From Fistulifera solaris (lineage: Eukaryota), in NCBI GenBank assembly GCA_030295235.1, contig AP026149.1:310001-374000 (forward strand): a DNA stretch of 64,000 nucleotides, written 5' to 3'. The position numbers and the translations under genes were made by a program. Positions 2,799 to 64,000 of the stretch are shown here, piece after piece. The first letter of the stretch is position 1. Every line of letters starts with the position of its first letter. The notes under the pieces were generated by a model. The model was given only the letters and a program-made list of their open reading frames with translations. It ran no database searches and was not told where the DNA came from.

Positions 2799-3611
2799 AT
2801 GTTCATAAGCCGTTCGTTCATGGCTATTCTTCTTTTCTCTGTTACATCCTTTCCGCGTCACGTCGCTGCTTTTCCACGATCTCCTCTTCGTCACATCATT
2901 ATTAATTCCCCTTCCGCCCGTTTCATGTCCATCGCTTCCAATTACCAAAGCGTCTTGGAACGCGTAAAGAAAGCCACTCCTCCGGGTCAATCCGTTCGAT
3001 TGGTCGCCGTTTCGAAAACCAAACCACTGGAGGATTTACAAGCGGCTTATAACGCCGGCTGTCGCGTGTTTGGAGAAAACTATGCGCAAGAATTGGTCGT
3101 CAAAGTTCCAGAAATGCCCGACGACTGTTCGTGGCATTACATTGGATCTTTGCAATCCAATAAAGTCAACGCTATCGTCAAGGCCGTTGTACCTGCCAGT
3201 CGACTGACGATTGAAACCGTCAGTTCGATCAAGTTGGCGCAAAAACTCAATCATGCCGTAGCAGAAGGAGAACGATTGAATGTCATGGTACAAATCAATA
3301 CATCGGGAGAAGATAGTAAAAGTGGCGTAGAACCCAGTGAAGCGACCGATTTGTGTCGTTTTATTGTGACAGAATGTCCTCAATTGCAATTGACTGGTCT
3401 CATGACAATTGGTGCAGTGGGAGATTCGTCGTGCTTTGATGTGTTGCGTCAATGCCGCGAGACGGTGCAAAGGGAATTGGGCATGGAAGAAACGTTGGAG
3501 CTGAGTATGGGCATGTCGGGAGATTTTGAAGAAGCGATTGCTGCAGGTGCTACGAATGTACGTGTGGGATCGACTATTTTCGGTGAACGAGACTACTCGA
3601 AAGATAAATAG
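2799..3611 (+). CDS. PLPBP: Pyridoxal phosphate homeostasis protein (YggS/PROSC family) with an N-terminal organellar extension
   Basis: Family signatures LVAVSKTKP, FGENYAQE, WHYIGSLQSNK, LSMGMSGD and VRVGSTIFG are present, preceded by about 40 residues of hydrophobic then basic sequence. Confidence 0.93.
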   Translation: MFISRSFMAILLFSVTSFPRHVAAFPRSPLRHIIINSPSARFMSIASNYQSVLERVKKATPPGQSVRLVAVSKTKPLEDLQAAYNAGCRVFGENYAQELVVKVPEMPDDCSWHYIGSLQSNKVNAIVKAVVPASRLTIETVSSIKLAQKLNHAVAEGERLNVMVQINTSGEDSKSGVEPSEATDLCRFIVTECPQLQLTGLMTIGAVGDSSCFDVLRQCRETVQRELGMEETLELSMGMSGDFEEAIAAGATNVRVGSTIFGERDYSKDK

Positions 3612-6638: not shown

Positions 6639-7242
6639 TGCTCTTCTCGAATCTTCCAGGAAAACAATCTTTATTTTTCCTTCAATGATAAGAGCTTGGG
6701 CTTACTGAAGCACAAAAGTTGAATTTGAACGTCGCGTTTGCCAATGTTTAACGATGCTTGGTATGCGGAATATTTTTTGTTTCGGCTCCGCGGCCACGTC
6801 GGTGGGGAGTCGATGAGACTTGAGACTACAAAGTAAGAAACGCTGTCTGTAGTCTGCAGTAATAAAGAGGGCCGGAAATGTTACGGCTGGGCACTGGGCT
6901 TCAGGCATCACTTGTCTTAAAATTGTCCAGTGTTTCTATTTTCTATTCACGAGAACGTGTTCTTAGGGAAAATACCTTAGCTAATTTTTTGTGGAACTTG
7001 CAAGGAACTGTAAAGGGAGGGATAAATGGCGCAGACTTATAAGGGCGTTCTCTGAACTCTGAACTCAAAAGAGTCCTCCCATCTCCCGTCCCACCTACCA
7101 GGTACTTTGTACTTTGTAACCTCCATTGTTCTGATAGTTCTAGTTCTTCACCTTGGGGCTTGGGCTTAAAGCCTGGAGTTGCTGTCATTGTACTGTACTG
7201 GTAATTTGTAGCACTGCTGAATAGTGAACACCCGGCGCCCGC

Positions 7243-43790: not shown

Positions 43791-46258
43791 ATGCCGAGCA
43801 AACGCACACGCTCCAGCACAACGAACAAGAAAGACAATAGGAAAAAGAAGAAATCGTCAGGCAAGATCGTCGCCAGCGACGATGATGGAGAGTATTTTGA
43901 GATCGAAACAATCCTAGATCATCGCAATATACTCGGTGTCGAGCAGTTTTTGATCAAGTGGGTCGATTATGATGAACCGACATGGGAAGCCGAGGAAGCT
44001 CTCTGCGATTCGGCCTATGATATGGCTATGAGCTTGAAGCAAGAGAAAACAGAAGGCTCCTTTTTGGCGAATACGAATAAGACCAACGCAACGGAAACAC
44101 TGCCCATGAATCAATCTACCAGTCAAAAGAAATACAGCGACAACGACGAAGAAGAAGAAGATGATGATGAAGAAGAAGAAGTGATTGCTGAACCTGTTGA
44201 AGAGGGTGACGAAATCGACGATGAAGCAACGGAGGAAAATGGAGAAACCGAGGAAGGTTCGGTAGGCTTTCAAGACGTAGCAGATACGACTATCGACTGG
44301 GCAGATTCGTCACAAATAGAGTATCGTCCGATCGAGCGTATTTCGGTTCACGCGGAGGGTGTTGCACAGCGAGTGAAGGCTGCTCGGGAAGCCGGTGTGC
44401 CATTGTGCCTCGTTGGACACGTGGGATGGACTCAATTCGCCAAACCGTGGCTCTCAAAAGTATCCAAAGACAATGATAAGCCAGACGGGGGCATTCAAAC
44501 TTCTGCTAGAAATCCACGATCCACGATCAATGAAGCGAATCATGAAGATAGCGACGCGGCTTCAAGTGGAGAGACCACTGCGACCTTGTCGGACGACGGC
44601 ACCTCTGATAGCAGTTGTCCTAACGATGCCAGTGCCAGTGCCAATAGTACCGATGAAAAATTACAGTTGCCGAAGAGTGCAGCTACTATGAGTGACGATT
44701 TCTTGGATTTGGCACAATTATACGTCGTGGATGTTCAGAAAATGGTTGACTCGATAGGGAGTGAAAGTGTGCCCATTCAAAGAAAAGGCGACAAGCTTGG
44801 AGACGATCCAAACCAATACCGTGTATCCTTGAAATTTTTCGTTGAAAAATGCTGGCCAGAGCCCGGAAAGGAGCTGGCACCAGCCATGGCTGCAAGATAT
44901 CTTCACCAGTGGCAATTTCCGCTTTCTAGCACAGCAGTTCCCAAGCTTTGTAATCAGTGCAATCCTCTTCCCCACGCAATATTAGGCTTAGACCTACTTC
45001 GTCTATGGCACGATCGGGAGCAGTTTCTTGGCGATAGTCCTTATCAGTACCTGTTTATGGGGAATAAAGGAACAATGAGTAAGCTACATTCCGATAGAGG
45101 GGGCCTCATGATTACCATTGCCCCTATCGTTGGAGAAAAGGAAGTCGTTTTGGTCCACAGATCGGATGTTTCTTCTCTGTACGACCTAGAAGGGGGTTTA
45201 GAAAAGCCTGATCTTCACCACTTTCCGTTGCTACCAACAGCTCGAGTTTGGAAGACGGTTATCAAACCAGGAGAAATTCTCATTATACCACATTCAACAT
45301 ATCATCAGTGTCGCAATGTAACCCCATGTCTTTCCTATTCGCGTTTCTATCTGGACGATGTGAATATCAAAGCATTCCTTCAATCCTTGATTGACTGCGA
45401 TGCCCCGGATTTAGATCACGATGATCTGTTGTGGAATGTGTGCGTCGAGTTGCATTTTGAAGTGACTAATTATTCAGATAAGGTTCGCGCAAAGTGGATC
45501 CAGGATGGGACAATCGAGGAAACACCACTAAGCATTGTCAATACCGTCACTACGTTAAGGAGTCTTAGAAACGCGGCCAGGCACGTCGAAATTCATTTCA
45601 TCCAGGTTGATGACAAAGCCCACGAAGACTGGAAGAAGATGGTTATTGATATTGATAATACACTTCACAACTATCGGTATCGTTACTTTCGGAGGCAACC
45701 AAGAGTGTCAAGGAAAGTTTGTAGACATACGAAGGAACAACAGCACGAAGTCGCGCTGGCTTCAGCACTACCGCAGGCCAAAGCGCCGTTTAATTGTCCG
45801 CTGAATCTTTTCTGCAATCAACTTAAGATTTCTCCCGACAACGAGGGCGTCGTTCTTCCAGACTCTGTTACGTTGAACCCTGGGGACCATCTTGGTGTTA
45901 AAGATCATGGGTACTATTTCGAGGGAGTGATAAAGAAGTGAAGCACGAGCTCAAAGCGGCATATGTCAAATTTCTTGACTTTACCGACTACTGCTCACAA
46001 CACGTTCCCTTTGAATATCTGCGAAGTGACGTCTCAGACGAGGCATTCCCACCAAGCTTTTCCCTACTGAATGGGAGCCTTGTTTGCTACAAGGAAAGTG
46101 ACCGATCGTATCAAGCTCGAATTCAGTCTTGGCGGTGTGGGACTTTGTACAAGTTAAGAATTGAGTTGGATCAGGGCCGATGTTTTGACCGTTGGTTCAC
46201 CAGAGAATCATTTGTCAGAAAGATACCACAAACGAACAAAGGGAGGACTAGCCAATGA
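43791..46258 (+). CDS. Chromodomain + JmjC-domain protein with a Tudor-like C-terminus; frameshift near 45935
   Basis: Chromodomain YFEIETILDHR...FLIKWVDYDEPTWE. JmjC features YLHQWQF, YLFMG..GT.SKLHSD and IKPGEILIIPHSTYHQCRN retain the H-x-D...H triad. ORF 45938-46258 abuts the end of the main ORF. Confidence 0.82.
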
Positions 46259-59893: not shown

Positions 59894-61357
59894 TGCCCTT
59901 GACAAAGACGTTTGTTGAGTGATAATGTAGAGCATGGCAAAACGAAATCGTTCTCGCAATTGATTCTTGTTCGAAGACAAATCGTCCAGCTTTGTGTAGC
60001 AAGGTTAGCGCGCTTCGACTCCACTTGCCAATGCACTCCGCAAATAATGATTTTGATCCAGAAGATCGGCAATAGAGAAGAACCGCAGCAGATTGGAATG
60101 AATGGATGCGAAAAAGCGATTGCACGAGTTGTAATGTTGTAATATGACGGTGATGCATTCTCGATAAATCTTCAATAAACACACGGTACGCACGGATGTA
60201 CAGACGTCGGATAGCGATGTTTATCTAGAGTGCTATGTGCTCCGTCGGTATTATAGGTAAGGTGTATCAGAATAGTCGTCCTTCTGCTGTTCAAGCTTTG
60301 TTAAGCTACTTTGGTGTAAGTAAAGAACACGATTGATTTGTCGCAGAATCCCTGGATATATATTTATCATGACTTTGGGTCATCAATCATCAGTGTCGTT
60401 GCTAACTATGGCATCAAACCTCAAAATTCGCAGATACTTAGGTCGCTCTCTTGCCAAAAAATACATCTGAAATTCAGAACATGCCAATGGTGTTGCAAGG
60501 CTATTGTGTACACTCAAGAGACCTGGTAAAACGTGTGGCGTTCTTCGTCATTTGGATACGAATGGAATTGAAACGGACGCACACGTTGTTAATCGAGGCC
60601 ATTATGCATCGTTAAAGCCCACATCGGTCGACACGACTTTAGCTGCTATACTTGCAATGCAACAGGAGTCGAAGTAGAAACATTTCATGCGATCATCAAG
60701 AGTTCCTCATCATTGAATAGTACTTGCACTGCAATTTACTTGGTTTTTTGCCGATTTACGATTCTGGTAGCTAGGCACTTGGCGAACGATGGGGGAAACG
60801 GTGGACAGGTCCCCTGTGCTTGGTTGCTAGTCTCACTAGTTTCCGTTAGAGCAATTCTTCCAAAGTCTGTCGATCCGGAGAGACATCATTTGCCAGCAAT
60901 ATTAAAACAGATTGCGGTCGTCTCCAAGCCGCCGCGAACTCGCGTAGCCATTTAGAACCAATTTTACATTCTCCTCATGAGACAAGGATTGTCAACACAG
61001 ACGGCTCTAGACAGCTGCGACCGACCACCTCACTACAAATGCCAAAACAAAGCCCAGTACATCTGCAACAAAGAAAGCTCGCTAGATGCTACCCTAACCG
61101 GAAAAACACGACGTATCTCGACAAAGCTCCAAAAGAATACAGGAAATAAGTAGAGCAGCACCAGTTTCCGAAAATCAGTGTGCGTGGAACGACTAAGAAA
61201 GACAGATATCGAGGCAAATCAAGAAAGAGACGGATCCCACTACTTCATCCTAACTGAGCTATCAACAATCAACGACGTTACCATCTTACGCGGTGCATTT
61301 CAAACCAACACCAATCGGCCATCAACCAACTCAAGGTATTCGCGATCTATACGCAAT

Positions 61358-63138
61358 CTAATATCGGTCATAACCTCCACGGTCTCCTCCATAACCTGAA
61401 ACGGAAACATGATGTTAGTAACCTGGACAAAAAGAGAGAACAAATGGGACACGACGTAGTTTGATCGAAGCATTTTTGAAGTGAAGTGAATTAAAGCTTG
61501 ACGGACGCGACTCAAAATAGAAGCCCTGATACTTGCGATGCGAATGATCTCGGTAATAGCGAAGGGTGATCACTCTGTGCTGGAACCTTGTTCTTGACTT
61601 TGGTAGCGAAGCGAAACTACCAAGGATCTGGTGTCACTTACTCTTGTTGACATCGACGGTCCGTCAAACCCAGACATCAACGAAGACAAGAAGGGGCAAC
61701 GCAATTTTATGACCGACTCAGTCGAACAAGACACCAATCAACACCAGATAGGACGCGAAGCAACTCTTCGAAAAGAACATTTACATCTTCCAAGTTCTTC
61801 CCACCGCAGAATACCCAATGGTAACAAACTCAATTGCTTAGTCTTCAGGAAATTCTTCCGCTCAATCTTCAGGATAGCAGTTGCTTGATCTTCGGGAACT
61901 TCGTAACGGGGCCAAACCATAGCAGACCTTGTGAAGCTCGAATTGATTCTCCGACGCTATCTTCAGGAACACTGAAACGAATCCATTCGTAACCTTCAAC
62001 TTAACAAACTAAACAAGAAAAGCGTGCCAAATGCTAGCAAACCTTGTCGAGCTCCCATCCATTTTCTTTGTGCGTGTCCCAACTGAACCCTAACGCTCAC
62101 GAAACTTACCACCTCCGTAACCACCACCTCCGCCGCCGCCACGGCGATCATCATAACCTCCCCGATCGTATCCACCGCGATCGTAGCCACCGCCACCACC
62201 GCCGTAGCCACCGCGATCATAGCCGCCACCGCCACCGCCGCCGTATCCACCTCCATATCCGCCACCTCGACCACCACCTCTGTCATTATCGTAGCCACCA
62301 CCGTAGCCACCACCACCACCACCGCTGTATCCGCCACCGTACGAATCATAACCTCCACGGTCATAGCCTCCGCCTCCACGGCCACCTCCGCCGGGACCGC
62401 GCTCGGAACCCATTCCTTTCGGTTGCGCCTCATTGACACGCAAAGCACGTCCATCGAGTTCATATCCCGACAACTTGTTGCAGGCTTCTTCGGCGGCCGC
62501 CGCGGGCATGGTTACGAAACAGAAACCCCGCAGTTTGCCCGTATCACGATCCGTCGGCATGAAGCAATCCGACACGGTTCCGTACTGCTCAAACAAGCTC
62601 TGAATAGACTCTTGCGTTGTCTCAAAGGCGAGATTGCCCACGTACAACTTAACATCCGGCTTGCCGGCGGCATTGAATCCGCTGCCACCGCCGCTACCAC
62701 CACTGCCCTTCGGACGAGATTCGTTGACACGAATGGTACGCCCATCGAGTTGCGATTGATCCATCTTGGAGATGGCTTCTTCAGCCGCTTCGCGGGTCGC
62801 CAACGTCACGAAACCGAAACCGCGGGGACGCGAGGTGCCGCGTTCGGTGGGCAAAAGACATCCGTCACCGTTCCGAACGCCGAAAACTCTTGACGTAGCT
62901 TGGCTTCGTCCGTTGCTGTTCAAGAAGAAAAGGTATAATAATTGGATGAGTTAGTTGTTTGAGAAAGGATTTGAAGTAGGAGAAGAAAAAGAGCCAGCTC
63001 GCACGTACCGTAATCCAAGTTACCAATGTAGAGTTTGATACCTTCCGCTTCGCCGTTCCCATTCTCCGCCGTACGAGACTCCGAATCTTTCGAAGGACCA
63101 TTGCCTTCGGGACTACGTGAACGTTCTCGTTCCGACAT
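61358..63138 (-). CDS. Glycine-rich RNA-binding protein (2 RRMs + RGG/YGG tail); introns 63008-62916 and 62109-61396; frameshift near 62854
   Basis: RNP2/RNP1 motifs KLYIGNL / RGFGFVT and KLYVGNL / RGFCFVT, then a GGYDRGG repeat tail. The terminal exon 61395-61358 encodes [12 protein letters not shown] in phase with the donor at 62109 and follows a perfect TACTAAC branch site. Confidence 0.9.
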
Positions 63139-64000
63139 GTTGTTATGCTTTTCTTAATTATTGAATATTCAAATAATGATTGTGCAATGAGAACTTTTTA
63201 TTATTTGACAAGTCTGGTGGTGTCCATGGACAACGCCGCAACAGATGGCTTTTCGTCGCTGCAAAGCAGAGATCTTTTTTTTTTTTCTCTCTGTGGTCCA
63301 AAAGGTGTCCGTCCGTACTCCCACCAACTCCAAAAGGAACGAAGAACATCATCTCTGTCGGAACGGTTTCTGAAAACTATGAAAGCAAAGTGTTGTCCGC
63401 TTTTCGCCAAGACTGGATTTCAATCACGGGACACGAACGACTTGTGTGTGTACTATCGATGTTCCAGAAAGATACTGCCTGACAGAGCTGCTCTAAACTA
63501 TGAACAAACAACATTATCTTCATTTTCTAATACCAGGTAGCTACCAGGTAGCCTTTTTGATTGCCTTACGGTGTGTAGTTCCAAAATGGAGGTTACCTTG
63601 CTTCACAACTGGGGATTCAGTCTTGAGTTCGGAACGACTTTATTTCGGGATCCTTCACTCTTGTGTGATACGACTGCAAAAGGGTGAGGACATCTCATCC
63701 ATTGATTAGCTACATGTACAGTGCACTTCAGCTTACCGCACGATGATTATTTCCTGAAATCTTTCCATTCAGAAATTGCTCTATAGGACCAAACTGTTGT
63801 CTCTTTGTACGACTTGAATTCAGTCATGAGTTATGAATGAACTTTTCAAAAATGCTAACAATCGTTTAGTATATGCTATAAAGTGCAGCCGGTCATTTGT
63901 CTTTCCCCAACCGAATCCAAAACAAGAACTTGAACCTCAAACACATTTTTGATTGTAAAACAATAAGTGGAACGGACAGTCCCACCATCGGAAGGAAGCC

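Follow-up and report, generated by a model that had tools for sequence, protein, structure and literature searches.

The 64,000-nucleotide (nt) stretch of the Fistulifera solaris genome analyzed here (contig AP026149.1, positions 310,001 to 374,000 of the forward strand; from here on, the window, with position 1 as its first letter) carries on its minus strand a gene for an RNA-binding protein with two RRMs and a glycine-rich tail. This gene ends in a 3' micro-exon, and its main mRNA loses a 714-nt phase-1 intron and has its poly(A) site at ~61219. We focused on this last intron, which may be regulatory based on its comparison with orthologous introns. The gene consists of the following parts:

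63009 to 63138, minus strand: coding part of exon 1, with the ATG at 63138–63136, the N-terminal region and the start of RRM1; it ends ...GNLDY in phase 1 (based on sequence and the list of open reading frames [ORFs])
62916 to 63008, minus strand: intron 1, 93 nt, GTACGT..CAG (CT..AC on the plus strand), supported by contigs of runs X2 (depth 205) and X4 (depth 127)
62110 to 62915, minus strand: exon 2, with the remainder of RRM1, a Gly/Ser linker, RRM2 and the Gly/Tyr/Arg/Asp-rich tail
62090 to 62109, minus strand: read-through codons K-F-R-E-R-stop (TAG at 62092–62090) at the end of ORF 62090–62950; the end of the public model, reached if the intron stays
61396 to 62109, minus strand: last intron, 714 nt, phase 1, GTAAGT..TTTCAG (sequence and spliced contigs)
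61358 to 61395, minus strand: coding part of the terminal micro-exon, 38 nt, with the last 11 residues and the TAG at 61360–61358 (spliced contigs)
61219 to 61357, minus strand: 3' untranslated region (UTR), ~139 nt, up to the poly(A) site, which is marked by X2, X3, and X4 contigs that end loosely in 22 to 23 T before 61219

The transcript evidence comes from assembled contigs of four runs of one study (X1 to X4) placed on positions 60700–63500 of the window; such contigs omit rare forms, and minor isoforms may therefore escape the comparison. The cover of X1 is even (~15–19×) and DNA-like. For all four, the label of RNA is a guess; X2 to X4 were treated as mRNA-derived only on account of the spliced joints and oligo-T ends seen in their contigs. 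The intron stretch 61452–61827 is uncovered in X2 to X4, and uncovered parts carry no weight alone. The initial annotation had placed the end of the gene beyond that of the ORF at 62090, with a donor at 62109 joined in phase to 61395–61358 across an intron far longer than the others. Contigs of X2 (depth 113) and X3 (depth 96) contain exactly this joint, i.e., they skip the 714 nt from 62109 to 61396 (GT..AG; CT..AC on the plus strand) and connect the G|GTAAGT donor at 62109 to the acceptor TTTCAG|GTTATGG, with the next exon starting at 61395. These data support that the ORF track stops too early and that the last intron is real and unusually long, the only other confirmed intron of the gene being the 93-nt intron 1, at which 63009 is joined to 62915; the contigs of the four runs contain no further joint in this gene.

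Two stretches on exon 2 match Pfam PF00076 RRM_1 (E = 6.2e-27; RRM1 partial, RRM2 whole) and precede a Gly-rich C-terminal tail of ~110 residues with GGY and GGYDR repeats. The nearest protein, P0001, is 99% identical, matches the N-terminus encoded by exon 1, and is listed at NCBI as 'poly(U)-binding-splicing factor PUF60 [Fistulifera solaris]'. P0001 ends in ...GGGKFRER, as does P0002, and the NCBI model therefore reads past the 62109 donor and misses the last intron. The C-terminus ...GYDRY specified by the micro-exon is found in Nitzschia inconspicua (P0018), in Pseudo-nitzschia (P0024, P0025, and P0033), and at the orthologous loci L001 and L025; a terminal Tyr is present in all 20 tabulated C-termini, 13 of which end in RY. 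In agreement with the initial annotation, the distal micro-exon thus encodes the true, conserved C-terminus, with ...GYDRY common to Nitzschia and Pseudo-nitzschia orthologues.

In PUF60, the two RRMs are followed by a third, UHM-type domain at the C-terminus, and there is no Gly tail. The protein described here has two RRM stretches followed by a Gly tail and, in structure-chain matches of P0001 over both RRMs, PUF60 (E = 2.6e-20) scores worse than PABP (9.5e-36), nucleolin (2.1e-29), and hnRNP A1 (7.4e-27); the PUF60 name is not supported on these grounds. Residues 15–283 of the hnRNP A1 chain 7zj2_A align with residues 35–312 of the protein (E = 2e-25). Many orthologues carry the JGI name 'nucleolin'. 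Nucleolin combines four RRMs with an acidic N-terminal domain and a GAR tail; here, a GAR-like tail is present, but there are two RRMs and the N-terminus has only ~35 residues, which does not match this description. No PY-type nuclear import signal, i.e., a basic residue followed after 2 to 5 residues by Pro-Tyr, was found, the tail containing no Pro-Tyr and the C-terminus reading ...GGYDRY. Two RRMs followed by a Gly/Tyr/Arg-rich tail give the protein an architecture like that of hnRNP A/B or nucleolin.

Last introns of orthologous genes

A metagenome scan returned 36 orthologous loci with 37–77% protein identity. The introns in their glycine tails were defined by frame-checked GT..AG models, and 13 distinct loci, including the window, were tabulated. 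Near-duplicates (L007, L008, L012, L013, L019, L021, L022, L024, and L027), cDNA-like loci (L001, L002, L003, L015, L016, L017, L033, and L034), incomplete loci (L004, L014, L029, and L031), a locus with no confident model (L030), and distant loci (L035 and L036) were left out of this table. The last introns fall into three size classes:

Long, 7 of 13 loci: window (714 nt), L032 (692 nt), L006 (918 nt), L005 (1,119 nt), L023 (1,121 nt), L026 (1,257 nt), and L028 (1,273 nt)
Intermediate, ~285–390 nt, 2 of 13 loci: the close relatives L010 and L011
Short, 80–98 nt, 4 of 13 loci: L009, L018, L020, and L025

In the seven genes with a long last intron, the remaining introns have 76–134 nt, with a single exception of 299 nt. 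A tree of the RRM region has three main groups, each of which includes loci with a long last intron; the window is sister to L006 (support 81/77). For Phaeodactylum, one report gives a mean intron length of 142 bp and describes intron retention as prominent (PMC5859163).

L005 deserves separate mention. Its ends match the spliced cDNA contigs L002 and L003, and it has a poly(A) run, yet the 1,119-nt GT..AG intron at the corresponding position is still present and brings a stop 8 codons past the donor. This contig represents a retained-intron mRNA that is stable or else a precursor that had not been spliced. Two further candidates for retained-intron transcripts were set aside: L032 begins within an intron and lacks poly(A), and L017 lacks a Gly exon downstream.

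The Gly-rich tail is split by 2 to 5 phase-1 introns, each with G|GT within a Gly codon, in L006, L010, L011, L018, L023, L025, L026, and L028. It seems that the Gly repeat itself supplies proto-splice sites, in which case the positions of tail introns cannot be matched one-to-one between species.

It is quite possible that the last intron is an ordinary constitutive intron that was lengthened by local duplication and is always removed, with the words that it has in common with other introns due to chance or composition. Against this explanation, to which we return below, excess length is repeatedly confined to the last intron, and this in three tree groups; in addition, a poly(A) contig of an orthologue retains the intron.

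A word cluster and a candidate internal 5' site in the last intron

Within the last intron, the following elements were identified:

61972 to 61997, minus strand: decayed copy of the module at the true 3' splice site (AGGTTACGAA...TTCGTTTCAG); it includes a proposed acceptor at 61993
61842 to 61969, minus strand: cluster of UUCCYGAAG(A) with four copies, three of which begin at 61969, 61898, and 61851 and the fourth, with one mismatch, at 61875
61636 to 61653, minus strand: internal 5' splice-site-like island, GATGTCAACAAGA|GTAAGT, at 66% of the intron length; an intron would start at 61641
61414 to 61420, minus strand: branch-point-like box TACTAAC, one of six in the window; its putative branch A at 61415 precedes the acceptor AG by 19 nt

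All three exact copies of TTCCYGAAGA in the 64-kb window lie on the gene strand in a single 130-nt stretch of the intron, with 0.36 expected window-wide. The cluster is contained in the GAAGA peak of the minus strand (~61750–62000), in which this word reaches 8 per 250 nt versus a mean of 0.55, and the RNA of the motif region is predicted to fold unstably (z = +1.0). Elsewhere in the window, 8 GAAGA per 250 nt are reached only once, at 44100–44390 on the plus strand, in what may simply be Glu/Lys-rich coding sequence.

Because the word was first spotted by eye in the window and L006, the remaining loci serve as the test. In the orthologue loci (114 kb), exact TTCCYGAAG occurs at eight sense sites and no antisense site, and seven of the eight are in the last intron or past the terminal exon. 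Of the eight, three are in the last intron of L006, one each in L010 and L011 (~110 nt past the inferred stop), two in L020 (~310–390 nt past the stop), and one in the distant L035. With the window and L006 excluded, three sites in 2 of 17 3' regions compare with 0.14 expected (P = 0.001 for sites and 0.009 for loci; first-order Markov null), and outside the 3' regions there are one sense and no antisense site in 84 kb. If one mismatch is allowed, the 3' regions (17.5 kb) contain 18 sense sites and 1 antisense site, and the flanks (84 kb) contain 14 and 15, respectively. Moreover, the last introns of the window and L006 have five exact words of at least 10 nt in common versus 0.62 expected (P = 0.006), four of which belong to the motif.

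The same words might act at the DNA level, as transcription-factor sites resembling heat-shock elements (HSEs) in an intronic or downstream enhancer of a stress-responsive gene. The HSE consensus consists of nTTCn/nGAAn units; TTCCYGAAG contains an inverted nTTCn-nGAAn pair (TTCnnGAA), and L006 has TTCCCGAAGGTTC and TTCCCGAAGATTC with three perfect units each. However, the strand bias (8:0 for exact sites and 18:1 with one mismatch) disfavors a palindromic DNA site with a free spacer, the looser TTCNNGAAG shows no comparable enrichment, and the copies in the window have only two perfect units, leaving an HSE-like element very improbable. The last intron of L006 also carries, at 6790–7230, a tandem duplication of ~265 nt, each copy of which contains CGAGAGTTCCCGAAG(G/A)TTCCA with three perfect nTTCn/nGAAn units.

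The internal 5' site-like island is the second element with counterparts in orthologues. Around the 61641 island, 17 of 19 positions match L006, the site of which sits at 74% of its last intron, and the last introns of the window, L006, L023, and L026 contain exactly one internal GTRAGT each, at 66–81% of the intron length. In the window and L006, the island has the form GAT(G)TCAACAAG-N-GTAAGT, and L023 and L026 have the common form ATGTGAGTCTCA. In the 3' regions, TCAACAAG occurs three times in sense orientation, each time directly next to one of these GTRAGT sites; the 84 kb of flanks contain no sense copy. The last introns of L023 and L026 additionally have in common a block (ATGTGGAAGTTTCGAGTACCATGG...; 3455–3506 and 3682–3710 in L023, where it occurs twice, and 2106–2158 in L026) of 29 nt at 93% and 53 nt at 81% identity, with an RRM exon that is only 71% identical. 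An nhmmer profile of this block matched only its own three copies among the loci.

Vertebrate nucleolin genes host small nucleolar RNAs (snoRNAs), and a long intron in a nucleolin-like gene could similarly host a small non-coding RNA such as a snoRNA. A scan of 61150–63300 against Rfam gave nothing near threshold, with a best E of 0.75 and three hits far below their gathering scores. Together with the unstable fold of the conserved part and the lack of a block conserved across lineages, this renders a host intron extremely improbable.

Proposed splicing alternatives of the last intron

The initial annotation had also proposed that three AG|GTTA(C/T) acceptors and an internal donor generate alternative forms, among them a 352-nt poison cassette (61993–61642). 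Based on the sequence and the ORF list, every site is located on the minus strand as proposed. AG|GTTAC at 61993 opens 40 codons followed by a TGA at 61871–61869, CAG|GTTAC at 61422 gives G-Y-stop, and GA|GTAAGT at 61641 would end a 352-nt exon. The in-frame stop of this in silico cassette lies 227 nt ahead of the donor, i.e., more than ~50 nt before the last junction. The cassette would hold the GAAGA-rich, enhancer-like cluster, and its donor is common to L006. However, AGGTTAY occurs 12 times in the window versus 8.8 expected, and four of the six copies in the gene are the coding repeat GGA-GGT-TAT. Similarly, there are 26 copies of GTAAGT in 128 kb (both strands) versus 21 expected, or ~0.12 per 714 nt per strand. 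Thus, the alternative-site motifs exist but alone are no more than chance.

The three acceptors can be explained more simply: one is the real acceptor within the coding repeat, and the other two have features that argue against their use. The site at 61422 overlaps the TACTAAC box at 61414–61420, the predicted branch point of the true acceptor, and its use would therefore destroy the branch box of the real acceptor. The site at 61993 lies in a stretch of which 61972–61986 is 80% identical to the true acceptor tract at 61396–61410 (repeat D6), making AGGTTACGAA...TTCGTTTCAG at 61997–61972 a decayed module of branch box, pyrimidine tract, and AG; the branch box of the duplicate reads TACGAAT versus TACTAAC, and 61993 is the third AG within 17 nt. 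The 43-amino-acid frame opened by this acceptor matches no Pfam family. In the contigs of the four runs, which omit rare forms, there is no junction at 61993, 61422, or 61641; 62109>61395 is the sole last-intron junction, and the contigs run straight across the proposed sites. This holds also for the proposed junction 61641>61395. The expected conservation of the cassette interior in relatives was likewise not found, as the introns of the window and L006 cannot be aligned apart from motif words and the donor island and no block is common across lineages. Taken together, the poison cassette and its alternative acceptors are improbable. The more general idea that this intron is regulatory gained indirect comparative support; retention or use of the internal 5' site fits the data better than the 352-nt cassette.

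We tentatively favor the reading that the last intron may well be regulatory and of the AtGRP7/AtGRP8 type, acting by intron retention or by use of the internal 5' site. The 62109 donor would remain unused, and either the whole intron would be kept or the internal GTAAGT at 61641 would be spliced to the normal acceptor. With either outcome, the mRNA would stop at KFRER*, lose the conserved C-terminal Tyr motif, and gain a 3' region of ~0.4–0.9 kb, which should render it unstable or nuclear; the internal-donor form would also gain an exon junction ~450 nt past the stop. An early stop, a long 3' region, and a downstream junction are marks of targets of nonsense-mediated decay (NMD) in other eukaryotes. 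The sensor would be an RRM protein on the single-stranded UUCCYGAAG(A)/GAAGA cluster in the first 350 nt of the intron, and candidate target words of RRM1-RRM2 are UUCCCGAAGA and UUCCUGAAGA. The word UUCCCGAAG contains UCCCGA, which is given as the nucleolin recognition element in one report (PMC12293987); based on this, we guess that the product of the gene itself may bind. For AtGRP7/8, one report describes that high protein levels promote use of a cryptic intronic 5' site and that NMD removes the product (PMC2602770). The recurrent long last intron, the retention in L005, the strand-specific word, and the islands at the internal donor suggest such regulation.

Several observations weigh against regulation of the intron. 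First, the exact word is missing from 15 of 19 3' regions, including those with the long introns of L005, L023, L026, L028, and L032, and the sites in L010, L011, and L020 were placed in the 3' UTR by inference. Second, the unbiased tests were at null with one exception: among 9-mers, four were present in at least 4 of 19 loci versus 2.35 expected, a number reached by 27% of shuffles, and the seven long introns showed no excess of common k-mers. The exception was 8-mers in at least four loci (70 versus 49.5; P = 0.017); 60 shuffles were used in the 3'-region k-mer test. Third, the window copies of the motif sit in local repeat units of 23 nt that are 70–78% alike (D1) and may therefore partly be the result of duplication. 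Fourth, the total of internal GTRAGT sites is at chance (4 versus 4.3 expected), and the contigs, which omit rare forms, neither use the internal site nor retain the window's intron in full. Fifth, 4 of the 13 orthologues have short last introns, L005 may be a precursor, and the intron models are backed by transcripts in the window (contigs) and L005 (cDNA contigs L002 and L003), the others being defined by GT..AG and frame alone.

Many of these observations are those expected of a constitutive intron, i.e., the single junction in the contigs, the null results of the unbiased tests, the GTRAGT count, and the short orthologous introns. Moreover, the introns of L010 and L011 (87% DNA identity) show no extra conservation; locus pairs >99.5% identical are uninformative in this respect. 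Lengthening by duplication is in line with the internal repeats D1 (3 copies, 23 nt), D2 (2 copies, 41 nt), and D6 (3'-site tract) and with the tandem duplication in L006; a second copy of the intron was not found within the 64-kb window. On the other side, the directed motif test is significant and strand-specific, the motif is confined to the 3' region of the gene, and islands persist in otherwise unalignable introns (window/L006 and L023/L026).

Gene copies, related systems, and significance

F. solaris is an allopolyploid. In X1, X2, and X3, we observed a contig that is identical to the window at 61880–61950/61969 and then continues for at least 255–332 nt that are absent from the window; the 30-nt continuation of the contig leaving at 61880 has no match in the 64-kb window even if 3 mismatches are allowed. 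A variant X1 contig has two substitutions and two 2-nt deletions at 61951–62000 and a depth equal to that of the window-like contig. Together, these contigs suggest a second genomic copy, perhaps of the other subgenome, the intron of which matches over the first ~230 nt and then, at 61879, diverges completely. Because the diverging form is present at a depth of ~7 in X2 and X3, some RNA contains it, and the low-depth cover (2–8) of 61880–62109 in these runs comes at least partly from the contig leaving the window at 61880. At 62619–62803, X2 has contigs that are 93–97% alike and have loose ends at 62689 and 62712. These contigs imply that a second copy, in which the Gly/Ser linker separating the two RRMs is shorter, is transcribed. 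We note that P0002 and P0090 also differ in this linker.

Contigs of X1, X2, and X4 have an extra base behind 62852, in a minus-strand T run (62852–62856) that reads TTTT in the window versus TTTTT. Without this base, RRM1 of the window reads ...DVFCPPN...; P0001 reads ...DVFLPTERG.... Since the contigs and the public protein agree, the frame break is a homopolymer error of the window assembly or a variant, and not a feature of the gene; the former is probably the case. One F. solaris assembly is Nanopore-based, according to a preprint (bioRxiv 10.1101/2021.11.10.468027). In practical terms, the public protein model has a wrong C-terminus and a doubtful name, and the window assembly probably has a one-base homopolymer error that breaks RRM1.

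Upstream of the gene, X1 contigs differ from the window by an inserted T at 63274 (in an A/T run), a T>C substitution at 63285, and one absent base at 63400. An X2 contig departs from the window sequence in its 32 letters upstream of 63142, where X1 is collinear; the 5' UTR may be spliced or copy-variable at 63139–63142, or the X2 contig may be chimeric. Downstream of the poly(A) site, low-depth (~7) contigs of X2 and X3 span 60700–61248, which suggests the end of a neighboring transcript that overlaps the 3' end of the gene by ~30 nt.

The gene resembles several known systems, each in part. RNA-binding proteins of animals and plants are well known to be under negative feedback by unproductive splicing. 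In plants, this has been described for AtGRP7/8 (PMC2602770), to which the present gene is similar in being a Gly-rich RRM gene that has an intron with an internal 5' site-like GTAAGT. If the internal site were used, the mRNA would retain the 5' part of the intron with an early stop and a downstream junction; the candidate binding cluster lies in the part that would stay. Unlike in AtGRP7/8, two RRMs are present rather than one, and it is the final intron of the gene that is concerned; it interrupts the Gly tail, so that only the last 11 residues are affected. No homology of the introns is implied.

As in hnRNP A1/A2B1, two RRMs are combined with a Gly-rich tail (with a full-length match to hnRNP A1) and a regulated-looking intron is found at the 3' end. 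In hnRNP A1/A2B1, autoregulation acts through a 3'-end intron. Unlike in hnRNP A1, the tail has no PY-type signal and ends in ...DRY, and the RRMs of PABP and nucleolin score better. Similarities to nucleolin are the RRMs, the Gly/Arg-rich tail, and UCCCGA in UUCCCGAAG. Unlike in nucleolin, there are two RRMs instead of four, no long acidic N-terminal domain, and no predicted hairpin context, and half of the motif copies read UCCUGA.

Animal SR/hnRNP genes and RBM3/CIRBP have poison cassette exons, and the animal cassettes are ultraconserved. Like these genes, the one studied here encodes an RNA-binding protein and has a potential insert that would carry a stop, together with a dense cluster of GAAGA. 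Unlike for the animal cassettes, there is no cassette junction in the contigs and no long conserved block.

A broader version of the favored reading is that, in pennate and centric diatoms, the two-RRM protein reads the UUCCYGAAG cluster in its own last intron or 3' UTR and thereby switches between a productive ...RY mRNA and a retained-intron or internal-5'-site form that would be degraded or encode a tail-less protein. Such an ancient stramenopile counterpart of the GRP7/8 and hnRNP loops is conceivable from the comparisons made here, but rather doubtful. Among the papers on diatoms, including Phaeodactylum, that we found, and in those parts of them that were available, none describes feedback by unproductive splicing for a glycine-rich or hnRNP-like gene.

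At present, the result is a corrected gene model and a comparative lead. The locus provides a concrete, testable case: the intron is defined, a 9-nt word is a candidate for binding, an internal 5' site-like sequence is present, and several uncultured diatom lineages have like features. If the intron is indeed regulated in this way, the regulatory logic would extend to stramenopiles, and a biotechnology diatom would offer a compact intron-based expression switch.

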